Origin: Candidatus Saccharimonadota bacterium
Lineage (GTDB): Archaea; Micrarchaeota; Micrarchaeia; Micrarchaeales; Micrarchaeaceae
Assembly: GCA_963698035.1 (NCBI GenBank)
Contig: OY969114.1
Span: forward strand, 150,001-182,000
Direction of reading: 5' to 3'
Length of the DNA: 32,000 bases
Shown here: positions 170-18,773 of the stretch, piece after piece
How the letters are laid out: each line of letters opens with the position of its first letter
Position numbering within the stretch: position 1 is the stretch's first letter
Notes under the pieces: generated by a model
What the model was told of the DNA's origin: nothing
What the model saw: the letters and a program-made list of their open reading frames with translations, nothing else
Database searches by the model: none
Made by a program: the position numbers and the translations under genes

Positions 170-183
170 TTAAGTTAATTGCT
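170..183. repeat. Left copy of the 14-bp target-site duplication (ttaagttaattgct)
   Basis: Identical 14-mer in direct orientation at 16160-16173. Each copy directly abuts the outer end of a TIR. Confidence 0.9.
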
Positions 184-271
184 GGGATATATACTATCTC
201 TTAAAAACTAGAGTCCTATAAAATAACTTTTACATATGTTATAGACCTAGAGGAAAAACTAGAGTGTTCTC
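184..271. repeat. Left terminal inverted repeat (88 bp), starting gggatatatactatctc
   Basis: Its reverse complement matches 16072-16159 at every position (checked base by base). It contains an internal 12-bp direct repeat aaaaactagagt at 203-214 and 254-265. Confidence 0.97.
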
Positions 272-307
272 AATTTATTAAGAAACGACCTTCCCTGGCT
301 CAAAATC

Positions 308-1039
308 TCAGTCAGTTCTTGTCACATTCAGAATTTTACCGCTATTATTGACGTAAAATACAATTTGGCAGGGATATGTTGCGTTTTGAGGCGCGCAGTT
401 TACATTAGCCTGTTTCACAGACTGGTTGCCATAATACGTATTTGTTATGTTGGTTATAGTGCCTGTCGTGTTCATCTGTTTGAGCCAAGCATTAACTTCA
501 GCAGTTATTGTACTATTAGAGACATTTGCAGGAGCCTGACATTGATTGGTGTACCTATTAACAACATATCCGTTTGTGCAACCACAATCTATAGCACACG
601 AGTTATTTGCACGCTCTTGCGCAGTGCAGATAGCATCTCCACAATAAGCTTTCAAGCATGCACCATAGCTACTGCAGTAGTACCCAGACTGGCAGGAGGT
701 TGCAGTACAAGATAATATGGGTTGGCTACTTGAGGATTGGTTATTCAAGTTAGTATTGGTTAGGAGAAAGAATCCCCCAACTATAACTATTACAACTATA
801 ACGCCAATAATCAAGAAGAACTTTGGTTTGAAATGGCCAAATATTAACTTATTTTCAGCTTTCTTGTTCTCTTTTTGCACTTCGGCCGCAGATCTCGCTT
901 TGCTCTCGACTTTGCTTTCAATAATTTCTAATTTTGCACCGCAGCTATGACAGAATTTTGATTTAATGGAGTTTTTAGCGCCACAGTTAGGGCATTCTAC
1001 TCTTTTTGACTTGATCGTTTTTCTAGTTTTTGCAGCCAT
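308..1039 (-). CDS. Membrane protein with an N-terminal zinc ribbon, one TM helix and a Cys-rich, NxS/T-rich ectodomain
   Basis: CPNCGAKNSIKSKFCHSCGAKL zinc ribbon. TM helix FFLIIGVIVVIVIVGGFFLL. Many Cys residues and N-glycosylation sequons follow. It is the last gene of the leftward operon. Confidence 0.7.
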   Translation of the reverse strand: MAAKTRKTIKSKRVECPNCGAKNSIKSKFCHSCGAKLEIIESKVESKARSAAEVQKENKKAENKLIFGHFKPKFFLIIGVIVVIVIVGGFFLLTNTNLNNQSSSSQPILSCTATSCQSGYYCSSYGACLKAYCGDAICTAQERANNSCAIDCGCTNGYVVNRYTNQCQAPANVSNSTITAEVNAWLKQMNTTGTITNITNTYYGNQSVKQANVNCAPQNATYPCQIVFYVNNSGKILNVTRTD

Positions 1040-1044
1040 TTAAT

Positions 1045-2865: not shown

Positions 2866-2873
2866 AAGTTGAG

Positions 2874-4238
2874 TTACGGCTTGGTTATTGTTGTTAAGAT
2901 CTTGGTATTTTTCAGATGCTTTTGCCTTCCAACAGGACTGAAGCGTATTGCCGACTTTATCTTCGGAGTTTTACCTGTCAATAGCTTGGATAATAGGATA
3001 CTCGGAAGCCCGTAGTATAGCGTTTCCTTTGATGATATATAGTTAAGTCCAACTGTGAAAATCTCATTATAAGCTGCCCTTACTGGTAGTAGGTCATCAT
3101 CTGGCTCAATTTCAACAATAACACAGAATTGTTTCCATTTTTCTAGATTTCTCAGATCATCTAATTTTATTTCGTCTACTAATTTCCGCACGTTTACAGT
3201 ATCATCAACATATTCTATCCTTTCGGCTATGAGGAAATCATACAGCCCCAGCAAAGTAAAAAGACTAGGGTACATGCTTGTAAAATCAAGCGCCGTAACG
3301 AGGCAGGGTTGTTTTCTGATTCTAGCTTCTACTCTCCCGCCATAATAAGCTTGTGATATTTTTCCATATATCGAAGCTGGGACATCAGGATTAAGCACCA
3401 TATAAGGAGTTATGCCAAGCTCTTCAAGAAATGCCTTGCCAATTGAAGCAGAAGAAAAGACGTTAGGTAGCGGTAATTTTACTCCAAATCTATCATATTC
3501 ACTTTTCAAGTGTGTGAACAGCTCGGCAGTAGCCAAAGTGTCCTTTATGTTGTATGCTATGTACTCTTTTGTTATCTTTCCATGCTCTCCGGCCTCGAGT
3601 TTGTAGTATTTCTTATTCCATCGCTCGGCAGCCCGTTTCAAGGAGATATGTTTATCATCAGAAAAAATAATCGCCAGGTTTTGGCAATCGATAAAGTATC
3701 CACGAACTTTTTTAGCGTATTTCGTGGTATGGAATTCTATGCAGGATTCTGCGGTGTTAATGTGCTTTAGTCTAATTGCCGGATGCTTATCTTGTTTACT
3801 GAGTTTGAGTGTGAAGCCACCATTCATCCAACCTCTTGCATAACCATAATTTATAGTTAATCGGGATAAATCAAACGGTAAATTGAAGCCTATGCATGGT
3901 ACTTCGTCCTTATGGACTGTTGGATAAAAAACAGTTTCAAGAAACGTCTCCAGGTCGTATAATCTTATAGTGGGATCATGATTGCAGTAGCTTTGCAATA
4001 CCTCAAGTTCATTTTTAGTAACTTCAACTGGATTATAAAATAGCCCTAACTTCTCTACTATTTCACCACGCATGATAACAAATGATCCAAACGTAAGTGC
4101 CTGGCGGGGGTCGGTTCGAGTTTCGCAGTCAAAGGAAAAGATTCTTTCATAGCTTGGTACACTATATCGCCTTGGCTTGTCTGATCGTGGCTTGTTGTTT
4201 TTCTTTTTGACGTTGAATGCTCTAAAGGCTACTTCCAT
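2874..4238 (-). pseudogene. polB: Protein-primed family-B DNA polymerase, C-terminally truncated: exonuclease domain and motif A only
   Basis: ExoI FSFDCETRTD, ExoII GFNLPFDLSRL, ExoIII YNIKDTLATAELF and motif A LDFTSMYPSL are present. The ORF ends about 125 aa after motif A. Motif B (Kx3NSxYG), motif C (YxDTDS) and KxY are not found in this ORF or in other frames downstream. Confidence 0.8.
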
Positions 4239-4524
4239 GCTTATCCATTCCCCGTTTCTTAAGCCGTTTACCTATCAGTTCAAGCAACGAGCCAATTGAG
4301 ACATCTTCAAAGTCATGTTTATCTTCAGGACTAGCTTTTCTGCTTCTAGCTTTGGGTGGAAAAGCGTTTTGATCGGAGGTTATTTTCCGGTGGCAACAGA
4401 AACAAAGAAGGATTTTTGTTTTGGGGTCGTTTATACGGCCATACGCGTGATGGTACTCACCTAAAACTCTTGGATCTGATTCTTGGCATATAGCACAACT
4501 TCTCTGAGAGGTTTCAGCAAGCAT
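4222..4524 (-). CDS. HNH endonuclease
   Basis: CAICQ...EYHHAYGR...LLCFCCHRKIT fits the CxxC...HH...CxxCH pattern. It overlaps both neighbours, which suggests translational coupling within an operon. Confidence 0.8.
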   Translation of the reverse strand: MLAETSQRSCAICQESDPRVLGEYHHAYGRINDPKTKILLCFCCHRKITSDQNAFPPKARSRKASPEDKHDFEDVSIGSLLELIGKRLKKRGMDKHGSSL

Positions 4525-5092
4525 ATATCTCTCCTCCGAATTCTTGCTCGCGACTTAACTCGATCTCCTTTATCTGCTCTATTCTAGTCTCCAAATGGTG
4601 CTTTTTGCCTTCGGCATCAATGATCACCCTTTTCTTGTACTTTTCAAGAAGGGTCAGGTCACCAGAATATTCTAAAAGCTTCTTAGTATCGTTGAAGTAT
4701 GCCCCTATCAGGTGAGCCATCTCCGAGCCTCTTATAACCACGCTTCTTACCCTGCCTCTCTCGTATATGACAAGGCCTCTTTCGATCCAATCCTGGGGCT
4801 TGGCTTTCCAGCGTCCCTTTCTCTTGCGCAGGTAGCCCCTTAGCTGGGCTTTTACGGTCCGGGGGTCTATTCCCACCTGCCGTGAAGCAATGGTCAAATA
4901 ATGACCATTCCTCACAAGCCGGATCACTTCCAGAGCCCTTACGCGCAGTTCCTTCTCTTTAGGGCTTAACGTGTTCCAGGGCTTAGAGGAGGCAGAGAGG
5001 CGTTTTAAGCCTCTCTTGCGCCTTTTAGGCGTCGACGACATCCTCATCTGCACTCTCTTCGTCCTTTTCGTTCTGTTGCAAGGCCTGTTCAA
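4514..5092 (-). CDS. HTH DNA-binding protein, a casposon-associated type
   Basis: Basic N-terminus followed by LTIASRQVGIDPRTVKAQL (helix-turn-helix). The true start is probably the internal Met at 5047 (MRMSSTPKRRK), because the upstream part overlaps the RHH gene. Confidence 0.6.
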   Translation of the reverse strand: MNRPCNRTKRTKRVQMRMSSTPKRRKRGLKRLSASSKPWNTLSPKEKELRVRALEVIRLVRNGHYLTIASRQVGIDPRTVKAQLRGYLRKRKGRWKAKPQDWIERGLVIYERGRVRSVVIRGSEMAHLIGAYFNDTKKLLEYSGDLTLLEKYKKRVIIDAEGKKHHLETRIEQIKEIELSREQEFGGEIYAC

Positions 5093-5363
5093 GCAGGCTA
5101 CCTACAACTTCACTTTCTGTGAGGTCGCGGTCCTTTGCCAAAGCCTCGATCTTTTCCTTCAAATCTTTGTAGATGTAGACCGGTGCCCGCCCCTTCGAAG
5201 AGGAGGGTTTGCTTATTTCCTGGTCAGCTGTTACCGAGCCCTCGAGAGCCTCAAAGTAGCTCTCCAGACACATTAGTAACTCCTCTCTTTTCCTCGCAAT
5301 GTGAGGATCTCCCTCTGCATTTTTTCCCGATGACGCAGAAAACATCTTTCTTTTTTGTTCCAT
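5025..5363 (-). CDS. Ribbon-helix-helix (CopG/Arc-like) DNA-binding protein, first gene of the leftward operon
   Basis: PVYIYKDLKEKIEALAKDRDLTESEVVGSLLEQAL fits a beta-strand, helix, helix RHH pattern. The tail is acidic. The start is taken at ATG 5363 (MEQKRKM) rather than the ORF-track start at 5426, which would run through the intergenic palindrome. Confidence 0.55.
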   Translation of the reverse strand: MEQKRKMFSASSGKNAEGDPHIARKREELLMCLESYFEALEGSVTADQEISKPSSSKGRAPVYIYKDLKEKIEALAKDRDLTESEVVGSLLEQALQQNEKDEESADEDVVDA

Positions 5364-5454
5364 TTTATTACCAAGTACATAGTAAAGCTTATTAATTTTA
5401 AACGTACCATTAATGTACGTTATCACAGAAAAGCGTACATATAGGGGAACATTT
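5364..5454. promoter_or_regulatory. Divergent control region between the leftward (RHH-HTH-HNH-PolB) and rightward (wHTH, R-M) gene sets, with a palindromic candidate operator
   Basis: aacgtac-cattaat-gtacgtt inverted repeat at 5401-5421, a further gcgtac at 5433-5438, and A/T-rich TATA-like tracts (ttaattttaaa at 5390-5400). Confidence 0.35.
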
Positions 5455-6381
5455 ATGAATACGTTCGAACTTTCTAGGATCTTGGAAGATAAGGTCGTTA
5501 GGAAATACGTTGTCTATTTTCTGCCTGGCCCGATAACAATTACCGAGGTAGCGAAAAAAGTTGGTGTTAAGAACAGAAGTAAGCTCACAAATATGATTCG
5601 TAATTTACACGATTATAAAGTGGATAAAAAGCAGTACAGAGCCAAAAATTCGAAGCCTATTCAATTAGCCGGCAGTAGATTAATCAGCGACTATATGACA
5701 GCACTTTTTAAGTTAAATAAAGATGAAAGAGATTCATTAGTTACATTCATATCGAACGTTACAATAAAGGAAGAAATAATAGACGGTAAAAAGATAATAA
5801 AGAAAGAAAAAACAATCGAAGAATTTTTATTAAAAAACAATAAGGATTTAGATCAACTTCTAAATAAACTGATCTTATGGATTTTTAAAGTAGATACGAT
5901 AACAAAAATGTCTAATATTATTGATCCGGTCTATGTATCTGATTTTGATTCATTGCTTTATGAAGATTATCAATCTCCAGATCCAGAACGAGAATTAGAC
6001 ATAAGAAAGAAGAAACTGGATCTAGCAGTCATAAATAGGAGAAAATGGAAAAAAGCGAGGACTTTAAGACAGGAGATAATGGACTTAGAAATGGCACCAA
6101 GACGAGAGAAATCGGAACTAGAAATAGCTCTAACAGAGTTTGCTAAGCATAATACAAAAGGATTTGCATTTATCAATAAGATAATCAAATCGGACATAAC
6201 TACTTCTATCGGGATCAAAAACCTCTATGAATTAATATATGGAAACTTAAAAGGTTATGAAAAAGAACTAAAGTTTAGACTTGCAATATATGAACGTTTA
6301 ATGAAAGATGACAGTTTGATATATGACCCATATACTCGCATTATTCAAAAAAGAACTGATTTTAGGAAAAGAAGGATCTAG
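5455..6381 (+). CDS. Hypothetical Lys-rich protein with a possible N-terminal winged-helix domain
   Basis: ATG 5455 is preceded by tagggg. PITITEVAKKVGVKNRSKLTNMIRNL resembles a wHTH. The rest is coiled-coil-like with low complexity. The ORF-track start at 5413 lies inside the palindrome. Confidence 0.55.
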   Translation: MNTFELSRILEDKVVRKYVVYFLPGPITITEVAKKVGVKNRSKLTNMIRNLHDYKVDKKQYRAKNSKPIQLAGSRLISDYMTALFKLNKDERDSLVTFISNVTIKEEIIDGKKIIKKEKTIEEFLLKNNKDLDQLLNKLILWIFKVDTITKMSNIIDPVYVSDFDSLLYEDYQSPDPERELDIRKKKLDLAVINRRKWKKARTLRQEIMDLEMAPRREKSELEIALTEFAKHNTKGFAFINKIIKSDITTSIGIKNLYELIYGNLKGYEKELKFRLAIYERLMKDDSLIYDPYTRIIQKRTDFRKRRI

Positions 6382-6512
6382 AAGTGAGGCATCTCTGAGC
6401 TCCTCTTCCCTGTTGGACATCTTATTACTACTTTTCTTTGTTTTACTCCCTATCTAGGAGTTCATTTAAGCTTTACGCACATATGTTTATGAGTATAATA
6501 AAGGGGTGTAGA

Positions 6513-9248
6513 ATGGCTACAGAAGGATATAATCTAAGCGAGAAGGAAACGCGAAATAAGATTATTGATCCACAACTAAAAGGAGTCGGGTGGGCTAGTC
6601 GCTATTACAAAGAAGAAGTGAATCCAGTAAAATCAGATATAAAAAACAAAGATTATGTTTTGTTTTCTGGAAATGTCGAAAGAAATGTAGATCTGTTTAT
6701 TGACTATTTGTTGCTTGCCGAAGATTATACGCCCTTAGCTATTATTGAAGCCAAAAAATATTCCAAAGATCCGGAAAAGGGACGGATACAGGCTAGAAGT
6801 TATGTAAAAGAAATAACTTCAAAAACAGGGTATAAAATACCAATTTTCTTAACCAATGGACAGACTTGGAAGATAATAGACCAAGACGGTATAGAAAGAG
6901 ATGTGAGTGGGCCTTTTTCGCAAGACGATTTGAAAAGAAGACATGAATTATATCTGGGTCGAAAGCGACCTACCGAGATCAAGATAAATCTTAAAATTGT
7001 AGATAGGCCGAGAAACGCTACAAATGTTAAAAAATTGAGCGAACATTTCGAGTCTGGTCAACGTTCAGCTCTAATCCAAATGGCTACTGGAACAGGAAAG
7101 ACACGCGTCGCTATGGCCATTATTGACATTTTAAAAAATGCGAATTATGTCCGTAATGTACTATTTATCGCTGATCGAACTGCACTTGCAAATCAAGCGA
7201 AATCAAACGGATTCAAGAAATTTTTCAGCGAACCTGTTGGAGACTTAAGAGAGGGTAAGGGAAAAATTAGTAGATTCTACGTTACAACTGTTCAGACTTT
7301 AACAGCAGGAGGCAAAACAAAAAGATATGAGGATTTTAGCCCCGCATTTTTTGATTTGATTGTATTTGATGAAGCTCACCGTTCTTTGTATGATAAAAAT
7401 CATGTTCTATTCAGATATTTTGATTCTATAAAGATAGGCTTAACGGCGACCCCAACAGATCTTGAAACAAGGAATACATATGAATTATTTAACTGTAAAA
7501 ATGGTGTACCAACCGTGGACTACCCCTATGATGACGCTGTGCTAGATAAAGTACTGGTACCATATAGGGGAGAAACAATAGAAACAAAAGTTCTCTCGCT
7601 GGGAATTGAAGGCGCTGAGCTCACTGATGATTTAAAGGACAAGTTAAGGCAACAGGAAGTAAACCCCGAGAGCGTTGTATTTACCGGCTCAGAATTCGAC
7701 CGAATATTTATGGATGATAAAACTAACGAATTAATAATTCAACGCTTCCTTGAAAGATGCTATAAATCAGATGAAGGAAAACCCGCCAAATCTATAGTCT
7801 TCTGTGCAAGTCAACGCCATGCCAAACATATGAAGAAGATTTTCAATAATCTCTTTCCTCAGTTAAGCAGTGATGTCCAGGTTATTACTTCTGAAATGGA
7901 TAGAGCTGAGGATGAAGTTAGGCGCTTTAAAAATGAATCAGAGCCTAGAATCGCGCTATCTGTAGGAATGCTGGACACAGGAGTAGATATCCCAGAAGTA
8001 TGTAATTTGGTGTTCGTTAAACCAGTTTTTTCAGCTGTAAGGTTCTGGCAGATGGTAGGAAGAGGCACTAGAAACCGGGTTGCGTGTGACCATCCAGAGT
8101 GGCTTCCAGAAAAAAACAAAAAAGATTTTATGATATTAGATTTCAAGATTGGCGGGCACTCAAATATAGAATATCATAAATTCAAGATTAATAAAGAAAG
8201 CAAAACTGTAGACATGATGACCCGTATCTTCATAAATAGAGTTAAACTGCTAAATAAATCACTAGATAAATCACAGCGAGCAATTATAATAAAGAAAATT
8301 CTCGAAGATATTGGATCTTTAAACAAGAATTCATTTATAGTTAGGGAAAAAATACAGATAATAAAGAAAATTGAATCTGACTCATTCAACCTAGAAAAAT
8401 ATATTGAAGAACTTAATAACGAAATAGCCCCCTTGATGATATTGAAACAGGGTACAAATCCTTATACTACTTCGTTCGTTCTGAATTCAGAGAAATTATT
8501 TGCACTTATTTTAGATAGGGATAATGATAAAATAGAAACTATTAGGATTAGTGTTCTTGAACCAATGATAGAAAATGTAGCTAGGAGAAACAATTTAACA
8601 GAGGTCAAGGAAAAGGCTAACGCTCTGAAGACAGTTCTTCAAGATGAATTCTGGGATGACTTAACTTTCGAGAAGACCGAATTCCTAATAAAAGAAATTG
8701 CACCCCTAATGAAGTACTATAGCCCTGATCCACGAAAAATAGTTCAAGTAGATGCGCTGGACATAATAACAGATGTGCAAGGATTTGAAAGAGAATTAAA
8801 GGAAGATGAAGATTTAAAGAAACTGATAAAGGAGAATCCGCTAATTAAAAAATTGAAGAATGGAGAGGGGCTAACAGCTGACGAACTAAGGCAGCTTGTA
8901 GATATCTTTCAGAAAATCAAGCCGGAAATCAGCATTCCTAATATACAGCAAAGTTATGGCGAAGATTTTATGTTATTCCTTCATGAGGCTATAGGGTTAT
9001 CAAAAACTTACGACCCTAAAGAATTAATTGAAAGGCAATTTGATAATTATATTCTAAAGAATAGCCATTACAATTCTAAGCAATTGGAGTTCTTGAATCT
9101 TTTGAAAAAAGTGTTTGTAGAGCAAAAACAGATTTCAATAGAAGACTTTGGCAAATCCCCACTAGCAGATGAACGACCACTTGATTTGTTCGAAGAGAAA
9201 CAATTGAAAATAATAGTTAAAAACTGTAATAGGATTAAATTTAAATAA
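6513..9248 (+). CDS. hsdR: Type I restriction enzyme R subunit (DEAD/DEAH helicase-nuclease)
   Basis: N-terminal SEKETRNKIIDPQL..GW (HsdR_N). PD-(D/E)xK motif IDYLLL...AIIEAKK. Walker A QMATGTGKTRVA. DEAH box VFDEAHRS. Motif VI QMVGRGTR. ATG 6513 is preceded by aaagggg. Confidence 0.9.
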   Translation: MATEGYNLSEKETRNKIIDPQLKGVGWASRYYKEEVNPVKSDIKNKDYVLFSGNVERNVDLFIDYLLLAEDYTPLAIIEAKKYSKDPEKGRIQARSYVKEITSKTGYKIPIFLTNGQTWKIIDQDGIERDVSGPFSQDDLKRRHELYLGRKRPTEIKINLKIVDRPRNATNVKKLSEHFESGQRSALIQMATGTGKTRVAMAIIDILKNANYVRNVLFIADRTALANQAKSNGFKKFFSEPVGDLREGKGKISRFYVTTVQTLTAGGKTKRYEDFSPAFFDLIVFDEAHRSLYDKNHVLFRYFDSIKIGLTATPTDLETRNTYELFNCKNGVPTVDYPYDDAVLDKVLVPYRGETIETKVLSLGIEGAELTDDLKDKLRQQEVNPESVVFTGSEFDRIFMDDKTNELIIQRFLERCYKSDEGKPAKSIVFCASQRHAKHMKKIFNNLFPQLSSDVQVITSEMDRAEDEVRRFKNESEPRIALSVGMLDTGVDIPEVCNLVFVKPVFSAVRFWQMVGRGTRNRVACDHPEWLPEKNKKDFMILDFKIGGHSNIEYHKFKINKESKTVDMMTRIFINRVKLLNKSLDKSQRAIIIKKILEDIGSLNKNSFIVREKIQIIKKIESDSFNLEKYIEELNNEIAPLMILKQGTNPYTTSFVLNSEKLFALILDRDNDKIETIRISVLEPMIENVARRNNLTEVKEKANALKTVLQDEFWDDLTFEKTEFLIKEIAPLMKYYSPDPRKIVQVDALDIITDVQGFERELKEDEDLKKLIKENPLIKKLKNGEGLTADELRQLVDIFQKIKPEISIPNIQQSYGEDFMLFLHEAIGLSKTYDPKELIERQFDNYILKNSHYNSKQLEFLNLLKKVFVEQKQISIEDFGKSPLADERPLDLFEEKQLKIIVKNCNRIKFK

Positions 9249-9250
9249 TA

Positions 9251-9280
9251 TCTACAAATGTAGACATATATATTTATAAA
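9251..9280. promoter_or_regulatory. Perfect palindrome tctaca-aa-tgtaga directly upstream of a TATA box (tttataaa); candidate operator and promoter of the RHH-hsdS-hsdM unit
   Basis: Palindrome at 9251-9264 and TATA at 9273-9280. The ATG at 9303 sits about 23-30 nt downstream, which is leaderless-type spacing. A third half-site tctaca lies at 9321-9326. Confidence 0.4.
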
Positions 9281-9302
9281 CCTTAACTCACTAATCCTTA
9301 TT

Positions 9303-9677
9303 ATGGAATATAGAACCGTATCTACAAGGCTCTCGATTGACGAGTTTACTCTCATTAATGACTATTGTAAACGAAAAAGCATCAACCCATCAGCACTAAT
9401 AAAAGAACTCATCTTTGATGAGATAACTCCGTCTATCCCAGCACATATCGCAGGGAAAAATATTATCGAATACGATAAGAAAAAAGACTCCTTTTCTTGG
9501 TGTATTGAGCTAGATAGTGGTGAGCGCATTACAGCCATTAAAAGCATCTCGCCCGAATATATGAGAGATTTGTGCGGTGCCCTCGCAAGCGCTTTAACTT
9601 CAAGGAATGAATCACAAGGTAAGAAAAGAAGGGGTTCCGTCCCTGTACCTAAAAAAATAATCAAGGGGAGAAAATGA
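9303..9677 (+). CDS. Ribbon-helix-helix protein embedded in the R-M operon; candidate controller
   Basis: RTVSTRLSIDEFTLINDYCKRKSINPSALIKELI fits the RHH pattern. Its stop overlaps the hsdS start (ATGA at 9674-9677). Confidence 0.6.
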   Translation: MEYRTVSTRLSIDEFTLINDYCKRKSINPSALIKELIFDEITPSIPAHIAGKNIIEYDKKKDSFSWCIELDSGERITAIKSISPEYMRDLCGALASALTSRNESQGKKRRGSVPVPKKIIKGRK

Positions 9678-10837
9678 AATTTGACTACGTACAGTTAACG
9701 AATTATTTTGATATAGTTAGCCCTGGCATAAAACCATTCAAGGGAAATAAAAAATATATTGCAACTGGTTCGATGGAAACGGGCGAAATTGTGGGTTTCG
9801 ATCAAGTTAGCTATGAATCCAGACCAAGCAGGGCCAATATGGAGACTGTTGAAGACGATATACTGTTTGCTAAAATGAAAGACACCGAAAAAGTTTTCAT
9901 TATCACAAGGAAAGAAACCGAAAATATATATTCTACCGGTTTCAGTATCTTGAGAGTACGAGACCGAACGCAATTTGAACCTAAATTTGTCTACTATTGG
10001 TTGCGATCAGACGCTTTTAAGAGAGTTAAAAACCGAGATTCTACAGGTGCTACACAAAAAGCTCTAAACGAAGGCAGGCTTGCTAAATTCAGAATACCAA
10101 AACCTCCCCTAGAAACCCAAAAGAAACTTGTTGTGATATTTGAGAAGGTAGATAAACTAATAGAATTGCGACTAGATGCAGATAAACTAACTGACGAGTT
10201 CTTAAAAAGTGTTTTTTATGAAATTTTTGGAGATCCTGTTAAAAATACCAAAAAATGGCCTTTAAAGAACCTTAAGGAATTTGGGAAAATAAAAACTGGA
10301 AATACCCCTCCAAGAAAAGAACTAAACTATTATGGGGATTTTATAGATTGGATTAAATCAGATAACCTAAATACACCTTTTACATATTTGACACAAAGTG
10401 AAGAAAAGCTATCTCAAGATGGTGCAAAGGTTGGTAGAATAGCTCCAAAAAGGTCGGTTCTGGTAACTTGTATCGCAGGTAGTTTGTCCGCAATAGGTAA
10501 TGCCGGGATCGCCCAAAAAGATGTTGCGTTTAACCAACAGATCAATGCTATTATACCAAATACGGAAGTAAATGAGTTATTTTTATACTACTTGCTGGTG
10601 AACTCCAAAACTTATATTCAAAGTTTTTCTACACACTCAATGAAAGGGATGATTAGCAAGGGGGTATTTGAAAAAATTAGTCTAATTTATCCAGCGTCCA
10701 AGCTTCAATTTAAATTTGGGGAAATAAGTCAAAATATAGAAATGATGAAAGATAAGCAAAATGAATCTAAAAAACAGATTGATTATTTATTCAAAGCCTT
10801 AATACAAAATACGTTTAGAGGTGATTCACTATGTTAG
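9674..10837 (+). CDS. hsdS: Type I R-M specificity subunit
   Basis: Two target-recognition halves are separated by a conserved helical spacer (PPLETQKKLVVIFEKVDKLIELR). The C-terminal conserved region is QIDYLFKALIQNTF. It overlaps hsdM by 7 nt. Confidence 0.88.
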   Translation: MKFDYVQLTNYFDIVSPGIKPFKGNKKYIATGSMETGEIVGFDQVSYESRPSRANMETVEDDILFAKMKDTEKVFIITRKETENIYSTGFSILRVRDRTQFEPKFVYYWLRSDAFKRVKNRDSTGATQKALNEGRLAKFRIPKPPLETQKKLVVIFEKVDKLIELRLDADKLTDEFLKSVFYEIFGDPVKNTKKWPLKNLKEFGKIKTGNTPPRKELNYYGDFIDWIKSDNLNTPFTYLTQSEEKLSQDGAKVGRIAPKRSVLVTCIAGSLSAIGNAGIAQKDVAFNQQINAIIPNTEVNELFLYYLLVNSKTYIQSFSTHSMKGMISKGVFEKISLIYPASKLQFKFGEISQNIEMMKDKQNESKKQIDYLFKALIQNTFRGDSLC

Positions 10838-12318
10838 ACCAAGAATTAAAAAGTAAAATAAATAAGTTGTGGGATAAGTTTTGGAGTGGTGGTATCTCAA
10901 ATCCACTCATGGCAATCGAGCAAATTTCGTATCTACTTTTCATAAAACGCTTAGAGGATGAAGATGTTCTAAGGCAACAGAATGCAAGACTTACCCGAGA
11001 GCATTATGCCTCTATCTTCCAAGGAAACAGTGATTGCAAGTGGAGTGTCTGGACCGAATATTCTGCAGATAAAATACTGGATCATGTGCGCACTAAGGTA
11101 TTTCCATTCCTAAAAAGCCTTGGCGAAAAGGATTCTCTGTACAATCAATACATGCAAGATGCCGTTTTTGTGATTCCTACTCCGTCAGTGCTTATCGAGG
11201 CCGTGAAAATTATAAATGAACTGAAAATCAAGGAGCAGAATCGTGATACGCAAGGAGACATATACGAGTATCTTCTTTCAGAATTGACAACAGCAGGTAA
11301 AAACGGACAGTTCAGAACTCCACGTCATATAATCAAGATGATGGTGGAGTTATTAAACCCGAAATTTGGTGAGAACATCTGTGATCCGGCGTGTGGCACA
11401 GCTGGTTTCCTTGTTATCGCGTATGAACATATTCTGAAGCTGAATACCTCAAAGGATTTGATAAAGAAAGATGACGTTGGAAATGAATATGGTTTCAAGG
11501 GAGACAAGATAAACTCTACACAATGGGAGATTTTACGCAAGGAAACATTTTATGGTTTTGATATCGATTCAACAATGGTAAGAATTGCGCTCATGAATCT
11601 TATGATGCACGGAATAGATTATCCAAACATAAAACAAATGAATAGTTTATCCACCCGATATACTGAAAATAATCAGTATGATGTAGTCTTGGCAAATCCT
11701 CCATTCAAGGGTAGTATCGACGAATCTGAACTCAGTGATCAGCTTACTATAAAGACGACAAAAACTGAGGTTCTTTTCTTGGAGTTAATGAACCGGGTAA
11801 TGCGTATTAGTGGGAGGTGCGCAGTAATAGTGCCGGATGGTATTCTTTTTGGTGGATCAAAAGCTCATAAACAAATAAAGCAAATGCTTCTAAAGAAATG
11901 CAGGCTAGACGCAGTTATCTCAATGCCTTCTGGTATTTTCAAGCCTTATGCAGGGGTTTCTACAGCTGTACTTGTATTTACAAAGGGGGAAGAGACAAAG
12001 AAGGTCTGGTTCTATGAAATGACCTCAGACGGTTTTACTCTTGATGATAAACGCACTCTCATTGACGGAAAAGGTGATATCCCGGATATAATTGAGAAGT
12101 TCAAGAGACGCGATAAGGAAAGATTTGATGATAGAAAAGCAAAATGCTTCTTCATCCCAATTGAGGAAATAGAAAAAAATGATTTTGACCTTAGCATCTT
12201 AAAATATAAAGAAATTGAACATAAAGAAGTTAAATATGAAAAACCTCAAGCTATAAAGAAGAAAATATTAGAATTAGAGGAGGAAATTATTAGAATTGGA
12301 AACGAAATAGATGTCTAA
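10831..12318 (+). CDS. hsdM: Type I R-M N6-adenine DNA methyltransferase subunit
   Basis: HsdM_N-like N-terminus (LWDKFWSGGISNPLMAIEQISYLLFIKRL), GQFRTPRHI, SAM motif I DPACGTAGFL, and catalytic motif IV LANPPF. Confidence 0.93.
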   Translation: MLDQELKSKINKLWDKFWSGGISNPLMAIEQISYLLFIKRLEDEDVLRQQNARLTREHYASIFQGNSDCKWSVWTEYSADKILDHVRTKVFPFLKSLGEKDSLYNQYMQDAVFVIPTPSVLIEAVKIINELKIKEQNRDTQGDIYEYLLSELTTAGKNGQFRTPRHIIKMMVELLNPKFGENICDPACGTAGFLVIAYEHILKLNTSKDLIKKDDVGNEYGFKGDKINSTQWEILRKETFYGFDIDSTMVRIALMNLMMHGIDYPNIKQMNSLSTRYTENNQYDVVLANPPFKGSIDESELSDQLTIKTTKTEVLFLELMNRVMRISGRCAVIVPDGILFGGSKAHKQIKQMLLKKCRLDAVISMPSGIFKPYAGVSTAVLVFTKGEETKKVWFYEMTSDGFTLDDKRTLIDGKGDIPDIIEKFKRRDKERFDDRKAKCFFIPIEEIEKNDFDLSILKYKEIEHKEVKYEKPQAIKKKILELEEEIIRIGNEIDV

Positions 12319-12329
12319 TTAATGATAAT

Positions 12330-14792
12330 ATGGCTTATAGGAGAAATTTAGGTTTATTTACAAAGGAAGAGCGCGCTAAATGGAGTTATTATCTTTTAGC
12401 ACTCAAGGATATTCTAGACGAAGAGATATGGTCTAGAGAAAATAAGCTCCAAATAGAGCAAGTTCTGAACAGTTTAAATAATGATCAGCTAACCGTTATA
12501 CGTAATAAATACGGATTAGTTGGCACTACTACTGTCATTCAAATTCTTAGTGATAAGAAAAGAGCAATGGACCTCTATTGCTTTTGGCACTTTGCCGAAA
12601 TGCACGTTCCTAGTATAAAAGTTTACTTAAATCTCCCAAGATTGCACGGAATGCCCTTAAAGAAAATTGCTTTTGTAAAAACGCTTACACTTAATGACGA
12701 GGATATGACGGCGATTTTACTTTATAGTCTATGGCGCAGGTATGCGGTATTCGAGAGAAGTTACCAACTTGCAGAAGTCACTGAGCAACAGTTAACTCTA
12801 TTTACACGAAAAATTAGACGTATAAGCACCTTACTATCATACAGTGTTAAAAAGTATGTATTATACGAAAAGCCATACAGGCTAAAAATGCATGGCAAAT
12901 TCCATAATAAGTACATTTACTTATTTATGCGCTACAAAGGCGATGAAGAAGTACTTGCATTTTCAAATAATAGAAGTCAGAGTAAGTATGCTTATAAATT
13001 CGTCATATTAGACCCAGTTTTGAAAACTTTTAATATAGTAGTACATAGTGACAATGAGAGACGAACAATTTTAAATTACATCTCTAAGAAAATTAAATTA
13101 AAAATATTATTTGATTATGGAGATTTGAATGTTTCAAAAGATAAATTCTCTAAACTTTTTGTTTCTGAACCGACAAGAATTCCGATAATAAGTATTACTT
13201 ATGGCAATTCAAAACTCCCTACCGGAGCAAAAATAATGATTCAAGGAAATCCAGCATTAAATCCTATTAACAGGGCATTGGCTTTTCTAAATCCAAACGT
13301 AGTAGAAGCTAATGATATATCAAACATTAAGAGATTCACTATCCTATTTGAAGGACAGCCGGTTAGCATAGCTATAGATAAAATAATAGATGAATTAAAT
13401 TTAGGATACTGTAAATTAAGAATACCGGAGAGAGGGCTGGATTTTGAATTCAGAGAAAAACTGATTAGAAAGTTTAATTCTGATTTTCAAATACCAATAA
13501 ATAAATACTTCTTATTTGGTGAAGGAAATATAGATTATAAGACTATAATCAACTTTCTTCTCAATCAGAAAAATGTAAATTTAAAAGATAAGCCGATAGT
13601 TTATAGACGCACTTTAGACCAAATGTATAACATTGGCTTGTTAGAAAAACCCAAAGAGCATCCAGAACGTTTTTGTGTAAACCAGAGATGCGATAGACGA
13701 TATCGTAGTACCTGGAAGAGAGGACTTTGTATATGCGAGAAGGAACTGGTTATTTTCGGCACATCTTTCAGTGTCAAAATTAATGCAGAGTACGTAACTA
13801 ATTTCATTATAGACTATTTAAACTCTAAGAACTTAAAGTTTACTAAGGCAAAAAGAACATTCAACAAGAGAAAAAGAGATGTAATAGAAATATATACGCC
13901 GAGAGGAAATGTAACAATAATACCAGTCAAATCTACTAAGGTAGAACCGGAATTGTTAGATTATCTAAGAGATAACGAAATTAATTCCGTGTTAGTGCCA
14001 TATCCTAATACTACTGAAACTCAAGAAATAAGAAATAGGAAACATGGCGTTATTCCTGTTTCTGAACTTGTATATACTAAATTATACGAGCAGACTAAAG
14101 ACCCACTTCTTGCTGAGATAAATGGTACTATAGATAACGCCATTGATAGAACTGTTAATAATTACGAATATGCTATAGCGAGGTTAGAAATGAAATCAGG
14201 TTACGACTACCATTTATTTGAAAAGGATATGTATTCACTAATTCATTTTATATCTCCAATAGCACAAAGGCTTGGAGATGACCTTATTGGCAAACGAGTT
14301 TCGGATGGCCTAGTTTCTATTCCACTGGATGAAGAAAGACGGTTCTGTGTAACATGGGATTGCAAGTATACGTCGGATATATATAATTTCAGAGAACCCT
14401 ATAAGAAGACCGTAACATATCTGCAAAAATTATCAAAGTTACCAATCGTTAGAGCTTTCGGAGGCTTAAGAACATTTGTTTTTATCTCTAATAATCCTTC
14501 TGAAAAAAGATTTAGGAAATTCTGTAGAAGACTTATCAAGAATTATAAATGGCGCGGCAAACTGGTTCTATTAAGATCGAGCCAGCTAATAAGCCTTTCA
14601 AAACACTTTAAAAGTATAAGATATAACGTTACATCTTCTCCAGAGTTAAGGTCTAGATATTATGGCGATTTGGCAAATTTATTTTATATGTCCGGAAGAA
14701 AAATACATATAATTAACGACGATGAAGTAGCAAATATAACTAACCAAACATATGAGGCTCCTCGAATACATATAACAAGACCTGATGTCTAA
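12330..14792 (+). CDS. Large orphan protein (820 aa) with a Cys cluster and a C-terminal PD-(D/E)xK-like nuclease signature
   Basis: It starts 12 nt after hsdM on the same strand. CVNQRCDRRY...CICEKE is a possible Zn-binding cluster. The C-terminus reads FEKDMYSLI...RVSDGLVSI...VTWDCKYTS...TFVFISN, which fits E...D...(D/E)xK restriction-endonuclease-fold spacing. I recognise no other family motif. Confidence 0.7.
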   Translation: MAYRRNLGLFTKEERAKWSYYLLALKDILDEEIWSRENKLQIEQVLNSLNNDQLTVIRNKYGLVGTTTVIQILSDKKRAMDLYCFWHFAEMHVPSIKVYLNLPRLHGMPLKKIAFVKTLTLNDEDMTAILLYSLWRRYAVFERSYQLAEVTEQQLTLFTRKIRRISTLLSYSVKKYVLYEKPYRLKMHGKFHNKYIYLFMRYKGDEEVLAFSNNRSQSKYAYKFVILDPVLKTFNIVVHSDNERRTILNYISKKIKLKILFDYGDLNVSKDKFSKLFVSEPTRIPIISITYGNSKLPTGAKIMIQGNPALNPINRALAFLNPNVVEANDISNIKRFTILFEGQPVSIAIDKIIDELNLGYCKLRIPERGLDFEFREKLIRKFNSDFQIPINKYFLFGEGNIDYKTIINFLLNQKNVNLKDKPIVYRRTLDQMYNIGLLEKPKEHPERFCVNQRCDRRYRSTWKRGLCICEKELVIFGTSFSVKINAEYVTNFIIDYLNSKNLKFTKAKRTFNKRKRDVIEIYTPRGNVTIIPVKSTKVEPELLDYLRDNEINSVLVPYPNTTETQEIRNRKHGVIPVSELVYTKLYEQTKDPLLAEINGTIDNAIDRTVNNYEYAIARLEMKSGYDYHLFEKDMYSLIHFISPIAQRLGDDLIGKRVSDGLVSIPLDEERRFCVTWDCKYTSDIYNFREPYKKTVTYLQKLSKLPIVRAFGGLRTFVFISNNPSEKRFRKFCRRLIKNYKWRGKLVLLRSSQLISLSKHFKSIRYNVTSSPELRSRYYGDLANLFYMSGRKIHIINDDEVANITNQTYEAPRIHITRPDV

Positions 14793-14801
14793 TTTAGAAT
14801 A

Positions 14802-16022
14802 TTATAATTTGCCCATTACTTTGTTGTAGATTTTTATCCTCTTACCCTCTCGTATATTCTTTTGTATGTACCATAGCGTAGATTTATTTATTCCTAACTT
14901 TTTACGCTCTTCTGGTGTTATCCCTAGTATATCTTCCTTCACGTTAGTTGAGTCGTTACGTTTTAGTTTTATCTCTGGCAATGTGAAGACCAAGCCTGCA
15001 GCCTTGCCTTGGATATGATTGCTTAGCGCCCTCAGGTTCTCAAAGATCAAGACCTGGTTCTTGTAGCTAGCGTTCCTATGAGTTGTGGTCTCGTTGAAAT
15101 TTATCCTCAATTTCTCGATTAACCTCTTTGCTGTGCCTTCACGAAGTCGTATATGGAAGTTCTCAGTCACGATGAACGATGACTTCTTCAGGGCCTTCTC
15201 CTCAAGTAGCTGGAGAACGGACATGTCAACAAGCCACCTGTACAGCTCCTGGAAGTCATAAACCAAGGGCATCTTGCTCGAGCTTGCTTCATGTAGGAAC
15301 CCTATCGATGGGTCCAGGCCAATGGAGTTTATTGATCGTCTTACCTCACTCTCGAGTATTGAGTAGCCGTAATTAAGCAACGCATTTACCTCGTCCGAGG
15401 CATGCATATTGTGATAAAAACTCTTGTTCTTGCGGCTCTGGAAATTGAATTCAGGCGCGGCCTGCCTGAACACCTTGGCCATCTGCTCCCAGTAGATGTT
15501 GGCCATGCGTGCCTCGTACAGCATCAGGACATTAAGCTTGTTTTTGATTGTCTTGGCGCGCCTTATATCCCTATAGTAGGCATTGAACTCAGTGCTTGAA
15601 CTGATCTTGATGTGCTCCTTATCCAAGACCGTGTAATAAGCAGACAGCTCTTCCAAGAATTCAAGCTCGGACTCAACCTTGCTTTCTATGATTGATAAAG
15701 CTATCTTATACCGCCATGCATCATCCAGGTACGCTTTGTACTGATCCAGCTTCAACTTCCCGGAGATTGGTTCCTTTGGCATGGTTGTACTCAGGAGATT
15801 CCCGTCCCAGTTTAACATGATAATCGGTATGTCATGCTTCATCAGCCATCTTGAGGCATCAAACGAGATGCAGCCGCTATGACCGTCTATTATCACGGAA
15901 TCATAATGGATCTGGTGCGGGTAAAACTCTAGTTTAGTATTCTCAAGCTTATTGGTAATAGTAAGCCTGCGCTGGTCTACATTGATAGATGTTCCAAATC
16001 CAGAGATTAATAATGGATTCAT
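14802..16022 (-). CDS. cas1: Cas1-family integrase (casposase) with a C-terminal HTH
   Basis: N-terminal Cas1 beta domain (LLISGFGTSINVDQRRLTI...DSVIIDGHSGCISFDASRWLMKHDIPIIML). Catalytic-region motifs are LMLYEARMANIYW, NALLNYGYSILESEV, LDPSIGFLHE and LVYDFQELYRWLVD. The C-terminal HTH is GINKSTLWYIQKNIREG. It lies 50 bp inside TIR-R. Confidence 0.92.
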   Translation of the reverse strand: MNPLLISGFGTSINVDQRRLTITNKLENTKLEFYPHQIHYDSVIIDGHSGCISFDASRWLMKHDIPIIMLNWDGNLLSTTMPKEPISGKLKLDQYKAYLDDAWRYKIALSIIESKVESELEFLEELSAYYTVLDKEHIKISSSTEFNAYYRDIRRAKTIKNKLNVLMLYEARMANIYWEQMAKVFRQAAPEFNFQSRKNKSFYHNMHASDEVNALLNYGYSILESEVRRSINSIGLDPSIGFLHEASSSKMPLVYDFQELYRWLVDMSVLQLLEEKALKKSSFIVTENFHIRLREGTAKRLIEKLRINFNETTTHRNASYKNQVLIFENLRALSNHIQGKAAGLVFTLPEIKLKRNDSTNVKEDILGITPEERKKLGINKSTLWYIQKNIREGKRIKIYNKVMGKL

Positions 16023-16060
16023 TCATAGCACCTTTTGTCGAGATAATATCGACGTCAAAG

Positions 16061-16068
16061 TATATAAA
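16061..16068 (-). promoter_or_regulatory. Candidate TATA box (tttatata on the minus strand) for cas1, just inside TIR-R
   Basis: It lies about 40 nt upstream of ATG 16022. A small palindrome gtcga-n7-tcgac (16037-16053) sits between the TATA box and the start codon. Confidence 0.3.
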
Positions 16069-16071
16069 TGA

Positions 16072-16159
16072 GAGAACACTCTAGTTTTTCCTCTAGGTCT
16101 ATAACATATGTAAAAGTTATTTTATAGGACTCTAGTTTTTAAGAGATAGTATATATCCC
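16072..16159. repeat. Right terminal inverted repeat (88 bp)
   Basis: Exact reverse complement of 184-271. Confidence 0.97.
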
Positions 16160-16173
16160 TTAAGTTAATTGCT
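16160..16173. repeat. Right copy of the 14-bp target-site duplication; overlaps the last 4 nt of tRNA-Glu
   Basis: ttaagttaattgct is identical to 170-183. Its innermost 4 nt (16170-16173) encode A70, G71, C72 and A73 of the tRNA. Confidence 0.9.
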
Positions 16174-16244
16174 CCGATCGGGATTTGAACCCGAGTTTCA
16201 GCCTTGAGAGGGCCGTGTCCTTGACCGAACTAGACGATCGGGGC
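16170..16244 (-). tRNA. tRNA-Glu(CUC), 75 nt, CCA not encoded
   Basis: Manual cloverleaf: acceptor GCCCCGA/TCGGAGC (one C3-A70 mismatch), D stem GTCT/GGAC, anticodon stem CGGCC/GGCTG, loop CTCTCAA, T arm TCGGG-TTCAAAT-CCCGA, discriminator A. Confidence 0.85.
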
Positions 16245-18680: not shown

Positions 18681-18773
18681 CGGGCTCGGCGGGATTTTCA
18701 TATATAATATAATTTGAACCCGCGGCCTATGTCTTAGGAGGACATCGCTCTATCCAAGCTGAGCTACGAGCCC
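18681..18773 (-). tRNA. tRNA-Arg(CCU) carrying an 18-nt insertion (putative non-canonical intron) in the T-loop
   Basis: Acceptor GGGCTCG/CGAGCCC, D stem GCTC/GAGC, anticodon stem ATGTC/GACAT, loop CTCCTAA, T stem GCGGG/CCCGC. The T stem encloses 25 nt (TTCAAATTATATTATATATGAAAAT) instead of 7. Mature length would be 75 nt. Confidence 0.8.

Follow-up and report, generated by a model that had tools for sequence, protein, structure and literature searches.

FokI-type cleavage domains carry one active site each, and dimerisation is needed for them to cut both strands. PrrC and RloC are anticodon RNases of the ABC-ATPase-like kind, the Mrr and McrBC genes of E. coli adjoin hsdRMS, and Gabija is composed of the OLD-family nuclease GajA and the helicase GajB. 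RdgC forms a ring-shaped dimer and binds DNA irrespective of its sequence (PMC11390915). Family 2 casposons encode a Cas1 with a C-terminal helix-turn-helix (HTH) domain together with PolB, HNH and HTH proteins, are bounded by terminal inverted repeats (TIRs) and target-site duplications (TSDs) with a median length of 15 bp, and measure 6–16 kb (Krupovic et al. 2014, PMC4046053); the casposon cargo reported earlier consisted of single methyltransferase or restriction endonuclease genes (PMC4046053). Here we analysed a 32,000-nt stretch of contig OY969114.1 (the window, to which all coordinates refer) and describe an 820-aa open reading frame (ORF), gene X, which stands directly behind the type I restriction-modification (R-M) gene hsdM on a casposon. 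Our reading, to which we assign a probability of roughly 0.6, is that X is a dimerising, autonomous plug-in defence DNA endonuclease of an unnamed family with an RdgC-like fold, a zinc ribbon and a FokI-type nuclease domain, carried here as casposon cargo. What the analysis establishes are the ORF and its relatives, the conserved positions, the folds, the genomic settings and the build of the casposon; DNA cleavage, dimerisation, the role in defence and the trigger of X are what we infer from its predicted architecture and its surroundings.

Among the described enzymes, X resembles FokI and the nickase Nt.BspD6I (1FOK; 5LIQ/2EWF; PF09254) in that a C-terminal PD-(D/E)xK domain follows a large DNA-binding region, and the motif order FE...G..(P/S)DG...D-x-K-x-S...(I/V)S(N/G) of the X family is in register with that of FokI. 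By analogy with FokI, X would have one active site per chain and would need to dimerise for a double-strand break. It differs from FokI in that its N-terminal part is an RdgC-like fold with a zinc ribbon instead of the D1–D3 recognition module, in that most members of its family lack a dedicated methyltransferase, in being ~240 aa longer, and in not reaching the Pfam model. With RdgC, X shares a fold match of ~300 columns at probability 1.0 in both the PDB (E. coli 2OWL) and the viral structure libraries; its identity to RdgC is only ~10%, it has no Pfam RdgC match, and in X a zinc ribbon and a nuclease are joined to the fold.

The ORF and its predicted parts are as follows.

12330..14792, plus strand: gene X, 820-aa ORF with an ATG start, predicted DNA endonuclease of an unannotated ~800-aa family
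12564..13520, plus strand: RdgC-like region of X, residues ~79–397, perhaps to ~435 by the secondary structure of the model; boundaries approximate
13665..13739, plus strand: Cys4 zinc ribbon of X (C449, C454, C467, C469)
13743..14099, plus strand: middle alpha/beta domain of X, residues ~472–590, from the secondary structure of the confident model
14202..14744, plus strand: FokI-type PD-(D/E)xK nuclease domain of X, residues ~625–805
14220–14222, 14304–14306, 14358–14360 and 14364–14366, plus strand: catalytic codons of X for E631, D659, D677 and K679

An earlier note on this DNA had described the ORF as an orphan that begins 12 nt after hsdM, ends 9 nt from the convergent cas1 stop and combines a large, sensor-like N-terminal region with a C-terminal nuclease signature of the Mrr/PD-(D/E)xK kind. 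The ORF itself, its length and its ATG start were confirmed. The spacing to the stop of the convergent Cas1-family gene is 9 nt, as had been claimed, and the gap between the hsdM stop and the start of X measures 11 nt. The peptides to which the note had pointed, FEKDMYSLI, SDGLVSI and WDCKYTS, correspond to residues 630–638, 658–664 and 676–682, and its Cys cluster is C449/C454/C467/C469.

No family match to X was found in Pfam, PADLOC or NCBIfam at E<=0.1, where the single stray match was a weak sigma-70 region-4-like one (residues 30–114, E=0.064). PHROGs gave no match at E<=0.01, phmmer against the PDB returned noise only, and tblastn with X as query matched none of the annotated plasmids and phages. 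A word-indexed search of 5.8 billion proteins recovered X itself and two relatives with 86% and 66% identity, and the same search seeded with a 51-member profile again returned just three close relatives. Exhaustive HMMER searching of 1.84 billion cluster representatives, with an alignment of the close homologs as query, yielded 78 representatives at E<=1e-3, 47 of them at E<=1e-10, which are mostly 780–840 aa long and match nearly end to end. The absence from curated libraries therefore stood, and the orphan status did not. The family is nevertheless rare and sporadic (78 clusters in 1.84 billion representatives), and when 185,579 species-representative genomes were scanned for the locus with the alignment of the close clade, none was hit. 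Haloarchaeal plasmids were reached by tblastn from a bacterial member (P0006), not from X; the three plasmid copies found in this way, all annotated as "hypothetical protein", were verified as family members with E=1e-49 to 1e-66. Across the 51 full-length members taken into the conservation alignment there was no family match in Pfam, PADLOC or NCBIfam except for occasional zinc-ribbon models; weak PADLOC matches of single members to PbeC and BrxB were treated as noise. As judged from these sequence searches, the X family is previously unnamed, small, and present in both archaea and bacteria.

The 51 aligned members share 15–38% identity outside the close clade, and as little as 15–23% with X. 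Despite this divergence, C449, C469, E631, G649, D677 and K679 are invariant (51/51), position 659 is occupied by D in 45 members and by E in the other six, and C467 and C454 are present in 49 and 44 members, so both the Cys cluster and the E/D/DxK residues singled out in the earlier note are conserved over the family, beyond what chance would give. The active-site consensus reads FExD...LG....G...PDG....WDCKxS...GGL...ISN. The ratio of nonsynonymous to synonymous substitution rates (dN/dS) of X against its 86%-identical homolog was 0.083 and was similar in every domain, which indicates that X is functional and constrained along its full length.

An AlphaFold model of X calculated with three sequences was unusable (pLDDT 36.7, the model's per-residue confidence), and that calculated with the 51-member alignment was used; it had a mean pLDDT of 85.4, a pTM (confidence in the overall fold) of 0.74 and no segment below 50. 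When this model was compared with the PDB by Foldseek, the N-terminal half matched E. coli RdgC (2owl; E=4.5e-5, probability 1.00, 307 columns) and the RdgC-like kinetochore proteins CENP-N/L and Iml3, and several phage RdgC models in the viral library matched with probability 1.00. In the same search X matched FokI (1fok_A; E=4.4e-3, probability 0.98, 396 columns), several entries of the FokI-like nickase Nt.BspD6I (probability 0.91–0.99, with 5liq at 0.99, over ~275 columns) and the archaeal PD-(D/E)xK repair nuclease NucS (probability 0.87). The probability for AspBHI was just 0.20. The viral library further contained a phage "restriction endonuclease" that matched X with a root-mean-square deviation of 5.0 Å over 148 columns.

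Within the C-terminal domain of the model, E631 lies in a helix (627–641), D659 stands just before a strand (660–665), and D677 and K679 end the next strand (671–679), which is followed by a helix (691–702) and a further strand (713–720). In the model, this secondary structure is the canonical core order of PD-(D/E)xK nucleases with all catalytic residues intact. The middle alpha/beta domain probably makes up some of the 276–396-column Foldseek alignments to Nt.BspD6I and FokI, which reach past the cleavage domain.

Profile comparison by hhalign pointed in the same direction. The FokI profile was built from the cleavage domain (1FOK residues 381–576) and its homologs, 21 sequences that all carry PF09254. 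Residues 600–820 of the X family aligned with it at E=8.4e-4 (probability 24%) over 130 collinear columns, with the FE, G..PDG, D-x-K-x-S and (I/V)S(N/G) landmarks in register, and the N-terminal 599 residues, run as a negative control, gave E=0.66. One family member, P0020, also has a weak PF09254 match. An RdgC profile of nine sequences (that of E. coli and eight from phages) aligned with residues 79–397 at E=0.0026 (probability 11%), compared with E=0.29 for the C-terminal control. For the zinc ribbon, a sequence-profile search of the PDB with the X-family profile matched the ribbon of Trm1 (3axs, E=3.8e-4), and several family members have Zn_ribbon matches in Pfam. The only other match of this PDB search, to the MarR protein YusO at profile positions 177–273, was weak and of low complexity and was set aside, the model being beta-rich there.

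A natural split of the gene bears on the same layout. On plasmid pHl5678-1 of Haloferax larsenii (NZ_CP078064.1; locus L026, 5688–8191) the X-family gene is divided into two adjacent, overlapping ORFs of 390 and 444 aa, which cover positions 18–382 and 392–815 of the family's hidden Markov model (HMM), the break falling at HMM position ~385–392. This split argues that the protein is organised in two modules, one RdgC-like and the other made up of the zinc ribbon and the nuclease. Taken together, the model and the profiles suggest that X consists of an N-terminal helical and RdgC-like half, a Cys4 zinc ribbon, an alpha/beta domain and a FokI-type PD-(D/E)xK nuclease. What had been called a large, sensor-like region with no recognisable family is thus better described as an RdgC-like fold with a zinc ribbon. 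The C-terminal PD-(D/E)xK assignment gained support from conservation, the model, Foldseek and hhalign; its Mrr-like flavour gave way to a FokI/type IIS-like one, with no Mrr_cat match. The comparison of an AlphaFold model by Foldseek, which the earlier note had proposed, found a nuclease fold and gave no assignment to a known non-defence family.

The genes upstream of X are listed below.

6438..9248, plus strand: hsdR (Pfam ResIII, Helicase_C, EcoEI_R_C; PADLOC REase_I 9.3e-106); the gene caller places the start at 6513 (911 aa)
9303..9677, plus strand: ribbon-helix-helix (RHH)/RelB-antitoxin-like small gene (Pfam DUF6290 6.2e-5; NCBIfam RelB_antitoxin 3.7e-4; both under the curated cut-offs)
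9674..10837, plus strand: hsdS (Pfam Methylase_S 4.6e-28; PADLOC Specificity_I 6.1e-68)
10831..12318, plus strand: hsdM (Pfam N6_Mtase 1.3e-64 and HsdM_N; PADLOC MTase_I 7.8e-173)

X is predicted to be co-transcribed with hsdM and thereby to take fifth place in a complete type I R-M operon. The small RHH/RelB-like gene sits between hsdR and hsdS, overlaps the hsdS start with its last 4 nt, and may be a controller of the operon in the manner of a C protein. The order hsdM–X is kept in all three close homologs (100%, 86% and 66% identity) with a gap of 11–15 nt, and it occurs at loci L001, L002 and L003. Nucleotide homology between the window and L001 is confined to the hsdS–hsdM–X block (10325–14818); the genes 3' of X differ among the close-clade loci, and a Cas1 gene is found there in the window alone. 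An 11-mer, GATGTCTAATT, common to the hsdM and X stops was considered as a scar of a cassette junction and rejected, as it is missing in L001, L002 and L003.

The linkage to hsdM is limited to this closest clade (>=66% identity) and does not extend to the family. The neighbourhoods of family members were surveyed qualitatively in 15 contexts. One member (P0004) follows genes for a metallo-beta-lactamase (MBL)/RMMBL protein and a HAD hydrolase, and another (P0006; locus L008, 7744–12048) lies 18 nt behind the gene of a 590-aa OLD-family ATPase-TOPRIM protein that is GajA-like in size and domains. The latter pair resembles Gabija in its OLD protein, with an X-family member as the next gene; it differs in that this second gene takes the place of a UvrD-like helicase, and it is represented by one distant member only. 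It may constitute an undescribed OLD-based two-gene system. Elsewhere, ArdC-N and Mrr_cat-TPR genes (P0005) or an AbiEii/DUF6088 pair (P0007) are found nearby, and two members (P0008 and P0010) stand alone with transposase genes near them. P0013 is located in an integrative and conjugative element (ICE) with a type IV secretion system, beside a defence cluster of an Eco57I-like methyltransferase, an SNF2-PLD helicase and an AAA_21 ATPase, and P0020 lies in a type IIS R-M cluster, next to an Alw26I-type restriction endonuclease with N6 and C5 methyltransferases.

The haloarchaeal copies are placed in a similar way. On a plasmid of Haloglomus halophilum (NZ_CP101167.1; locus L028, 2846–8254), a McrB-like AAA ATPase, McrC and the X-family member follow one another in one orientation, with DUF262, DUF1156 and HNH genes after them, so that this cultured haloarchaeon carries a densely packed defence island. 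The copy on a Halomontanus rarus plasmid stands behind a reverse transcriptase and an ArdC-like gene, and the split copy of Haloferax larsenii adjoins a helicase and PD-(D/E)XK nuclease pair and an integrase. No methyltransferase gene lies near P0004, P0006, P0008, P0010 or the haloarchaeal copies. From these contexts the X family appears to behave as a mobile defence-island gene, often the last one behind another nucleic-acid-targeting module. Relatives of X do sit among defence and mobile-element genes, as the earlier note would have expected; whether they also track hsdRMS has a narrower answer, in that only the closest clade does. The coupling to hsdM that the note proposed was thus found in all three close homologs and is replaced in distant members by McrBC, an OLD protein, an MBL nuclease, a reverse transcriptase or no partner at all.

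The variety of partners, the stand-alone copies and the many members without a methyltransferase argue that X is autonomous and not a dedicated type I subunit; at the window locus it is merely co-expressed with the type I system. We propose that the RdgC-like half would hold double-stranded DNA without sequence specificity and mediate dimerisation as in RdgC, and that the dimer would bring together two FokI-type domains with single active sites, resulting in a double-strand break. This proposal, in which the N-terminal half holds DNA, dimerises and positions the two cleavage domains, follows from the ring-shaped dimer of RdgC and the single active site of FokI domains. X would act as an autonomous plug-in effector, either alone or as the last gene behind diverse modules, which across the family would include type I hsdRSM, McrBC, an OLD ATPase-TOPRIM protein, an MBL/beta-CASP-like nuclease and a reverse transcriptase. 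The trigger that we favour would be DNA ends or breaks, produced by the upstream module or presented by incoming linear DNA, so that X would finish off restricted DNA; we put this forward as a speculation that we hold tentatively and would not be surprised to see fail. Dependence on ends or breaks would explain the many partners, the action of stand-alone copies and the lack of need for a cognate methyltransferase. A fuller picture, in which the family are modular "finisher" nucleases whose RdgC-like ring threads onto DNA ends or breaks while the dimerised FokI-type domains chop the DNA, and which are bolted behind break-making modules or work alone, goes further, and we regard it as correspondingly more doubtful.

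Several observations weigh against the reading of X as an autonomous FokI-type defence nuclease. The likeness to FokI is distant: Foldseek TM-scores were low (0.15–0.25), a consequence of comparing whole multi-domain chains, and the hhalign probability was only 24%. X does not match PF09254 even at E<=10, and the model gave a weak match in one of the 51 members (P0020, best E=0.02, below the curated threshold). The sequence-level likeness to RdgC is marginal (probability 11%), and none of the 51 members matches Pfam RdgC. By the criteria of the curated models X belongs to neither Pfam family; the FokI and RdgC assignments come mainly from fold and motifs, with sequence support that is consistent and weak. 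The 15 surveyed contexts include some on short contigs and were assessed with no background control. The DNA-end or break trigger is a speculation, and no reader of modification or sequence by which X could tell self from non-self was recognised. Finally, since the gene is carried on a transposon, the beneficiary could be the element and not the host, through addiction or by shutting out rivals.

The rival explanation that survives best, and which we consider unlikely, makes X a methylation-sensitive restriction nuclease that needs HsdM/HsdS for self-protection. It would either supply the type I system with a second "R" activity that does not translocate or be type IIS-like and use the same methyltransferase. 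Being transcribed behind hsdM, X would always be produced along with the methylase that protects against it, and the 11–15 nt gap recurs in all three close homologs; the FokI/type IIS-like fold, the position of P0020 beside N6/C5 methyltransferases and an Alw26I-type enzyme, and that of P0013 near an Eco57I-like methyltransferase also agree with it. A sequence-specific nuclease without a cognate methyltransferase would, however, be lethal, and many members have no methyltransferase nearby (those with OLD, MBL, McrBC or reverse transcriptase partners, and those standing alone). X would furthermore have to track the fast-changing specificity of HsdS, and no domain resembling a target recognition domain (TRD), or otherwise reading sequence, was found in it; the HsdR of the operon looks complete.

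Somewhat less credible again is a type IV-like enzyme, that is, a modification-dependent endonuclease that acts independently of its neighbours and attacks phage DNA with modified bases. X shares with Mrr and other type IV enzymes the PD-(D/E)xK core and the location beside a type I R-M system (beside McrBC elsewhere in the family), and type IV enzymes are often a reader fused to such a core. Stand-alone copies and variable neighbours, the dispensability of a methyltransferase and the Haloglomus copy among type IV genes (McrBC, DUF262) would fit this explanation. Against it, no SRA, EVE/PUA, YTH or other known modified-base reader was recognised in X, the 51 members gave no Pfam Mrr_cat and no PADLOC mREase_IV match, and the Foldseek probability for AspBHI was only 0.20. 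The arrangement of X is also operonic instead of independent, and operonic coupling to an N6-methyladenine methyltransferase would be risky for a methyl-directed enzyme.

An abortive-infection effector following the guard logic of PrrC/RloC, held inactive by its upstream partner (HsdM, McrC, OLD and so on) and freed to cut DNA when a virus inhibits that partner, appears very improbable. X does recall these proteins as an extra nuclease gene in a type I hsd operon, and thus a possible second layer of defence, in the way prrC lies in the prr locus; whenever members of the family are coupled, they are the downstream gene of the defence module, and ArdC-like anti-restriction genes are near in two contexts. 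The partners are, however, structurally unrelated, which makes a common inhibitory interface unlikely, and stand-alone copies exist. Unlike PrrC and RloC, X has no ATPase motifs and carries a DNA-type PD-(D/E)xK domain; neither ABC-ATPase or anticodon-nuclease features nor a PrrC/RloC-type model match were found. The earlier suggestion of a PrrC/RloC-like accessory factor of type I loci did not hold, because linkage to hsdM is specific to the closest clade and dependence on a type I system is therefore not a property of the family. The least likely explanation of all, a repair or recombination nuclease or a maintenance or addiction function of the casposon and other elements with no role in defence, can point to the modulation of RecA by RdgC (PMC11390915), to NucS among the fold matches, to the H. 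larsenii copy beside a helicase and PD-(D/E)XK nuclease pair and an integrase, and to the many copies on plasmids, ICEs and transposon-rich regions, but such a rare and sporadic distribution is what accessory defence genes typically show and repair genes do not, a casposon core lacking X exists, and most of the neighbours are recognised defence genes.

The preferred reading of X as an autonomous defence nuclease places the whole cassette on a transposon. Positions 170–16173 comprise a complete casposon insertion of 15,976 bp, and near 16.1 kb the GC content rises from ~37% to ~53% in the host flank. Its ends and further genes are listed below.

170..183: target-site duplication, left copy, perfect 14 bp, TTAAGTTAATTGCT
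184..271: left TIR, 88 nt, matching the right TIR in reverse complement at 88/88 positions
2874..4238, minus strand: truncated PolB, 454 aa, exonuclease motifs and motif A only (Pfam DNA_pol_B_2 2e-8)
4222–4524, 4514–5092 and 5025–5426, minus strand: small core genes of the casposon, encoding an HNH-like protein, a 192-aa HTH-like protein and an RHH/Arc-like protein (weak HNH, HTH_23 and Arc-like matches)
14802..16022, minus strand: casposase (Cas1-solo with C-terminal HTH), 406 aa, convergent with X (Pfam Cas_Cas1 E=2.8e-57, residues 4–305 only)
16072..16159: right TIR, 88 nt
16160..16173: target-site duplication, right copy, TTAAGTTAATTGCT, overlapping the last 4 nt of tRNA-Glu
16170..16244, minus strand: tRNA-Glu(CTC), whose 3' end is the integration target (ARAGORN; Rfam tRNA 55.5 bits)

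The gene convergent with X, which the earlier note had called cas1, does belong to the Cas1 family and is a casposase. Its best solved match was the Methanosarcina mazei casposase 6OPM (E=2e-65, residues 2–398 including the C-terminal HTH), compared with 1.7e-24 for the best CRISPR Cas1, and no CRISPR array was found in the window. A role in CRISPR adaptation was rejected on these grounds. Together with the casposon ends, the casposase shifts the context of X from an R-M system next to CRISPR to a defence cassette on a transposon.

A compact related core was found in a Ca. Micrarchaeota metagenome-assembled genome (MAG; OY970071.1, 10001–14940, here L013). It contains Cas1, full-length PolB, HNH and two small genes, which are syntenic with those of the window and share with them 55% (Cas1), 57% (PolB), 60% (HNH), 43% (192-aa protein) and 32% (RHH) identity. 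hsdRSM, X and the fusexin-like gene are all missing from this core, and in its 21-kb locus no long TIRs and no adjacent tRNA were detected. Since this core lacks hsdRSM and X, the nucleotide homology with L001 ends at the hsdS–hsdM–X block, and the cargo of the casposon is lower in GC (33–36%) than its core (43–44%), hsdRSM and X are cargo, inserted between the regulatory genes of the casposon and the casposase. The kinship with L013 may hint that the element in the window or its host is DPANN-related. The PolB of the window aligns over residues 1–439 with the 895-aa PolB ORF of L013 (57% identity); with 454 of 895 aa it is probably non-functional, and the casposon copy is therefore probably not self-replicating.

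The perfect TIRs and TSD suggest that integration was recent. A 15,860-bp Logan contig (ERR10755947_3595799, here L004; window 242–16101), which assembles the same element independently, was considered as an excised copy and rejected, because both of its ends lie exactly 30 nt inside the TIRs, where a k=31 assembly is expected to break on meeting an inverted repeat. The host flank is an ordinary archaeal chromosome with genes for ArgRS, archaeal RqcH, ThiI, SecF and DUF460. A 59-nt Rfam tRNA match within this flank (18715–18773, minus strand; 30.1 bits, barely over the threshold), not called by ARAGORN, may represent part of a tRNA or else an atypical one.

Three further genes of the element were noted. 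A 606-aa ORF (1045–2865, minus strand), whose start lies 9 nt behind the truncated polB, has a match to archaeal Fusexin1 (7P4L, E=9e-7). The match spans only Fsx1 residues 316–441. The ORF also carries the Pfam mark PF28161 Fsx1, and by sequence it looks like a fusexin-related fragment or derivative; in the literature searched, coverage of which was incomplete, no mention of casposons and fusexins together was found. Just inside the left TIR, a 243-aa protein (308–1039, minus strand) begins with a zinc ribbon, contains a transmembrane segment and has an ectodomain rich in Cys and in N-glycosylation motifs, and may form a cell-surface module of the casposon with the fusexin-like ORF. A 322-aa ORF between the core genes and hsdR (5413–6381, plus strand) belongs to no family, has the lowest GC content of the element (31.6%) and is not present in L013.

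In its features the element is like the family 2 casposons (AciBoo-C1, M. mazei): it has a casposase with a C-terminal HTH, a PolB gene, HNH, small HTH/RHH genes and TIRs, it is integrated with a 14-bp TSD at the 3' end of a tRNA, and its size falls within 6–16 kb. On these features we would place it as family-2-like. It departs from them in that its PolB is the N-terminal half only and matches a protein-primed-type Pfam model, in that its cargo is a complete type I R-M system, X and the fusexin-like fragment, and in that its nearest relative lies in a Micrarchaeota MAG.

The earlier note's core idea, that X is a novel defence-type nuclease with a coupling to hsdM, finds support, and its function in defence is what we infer from the company that the family keeps. 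The catalytic principle is a known one; no description of the family, of its architecture or of its modular pairing is given in the curated libraries or in the literature searched, where, with incomplete coverage, nothing relevant was found on RdgC-nuclease or FokI-like defence proteins. If the reading is correct, X represents an undescribed defence nuclease family in which a zinc ribbon and a FokI-type domain are joined to an RdgC-like DNA clamp and which pairs with at least five kinds of upstream module, and its modularity could show how restriction-type systems get reinforced. Copies on plasmids of the cultured Haloferax larsenii, Haloglomus halophilum and Halomontanus rarus make the family genetically testable, and a non-specific, compact cleavage module on a ring-type DNA binder is of possible biotechnological interest. 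A casposon with a complete type I R-M system and X extends the known casposon cargo beyond single methyltransferase or restriction endonuclease genes (PMC4046053). If X and its relatives do act as finishers, they would destroy restricted DNA that could otherwise be repaired by recombination, especially in archaea without RecBCD/AddAB, and casposons would be vehicles for multi-layer defence cassettes.

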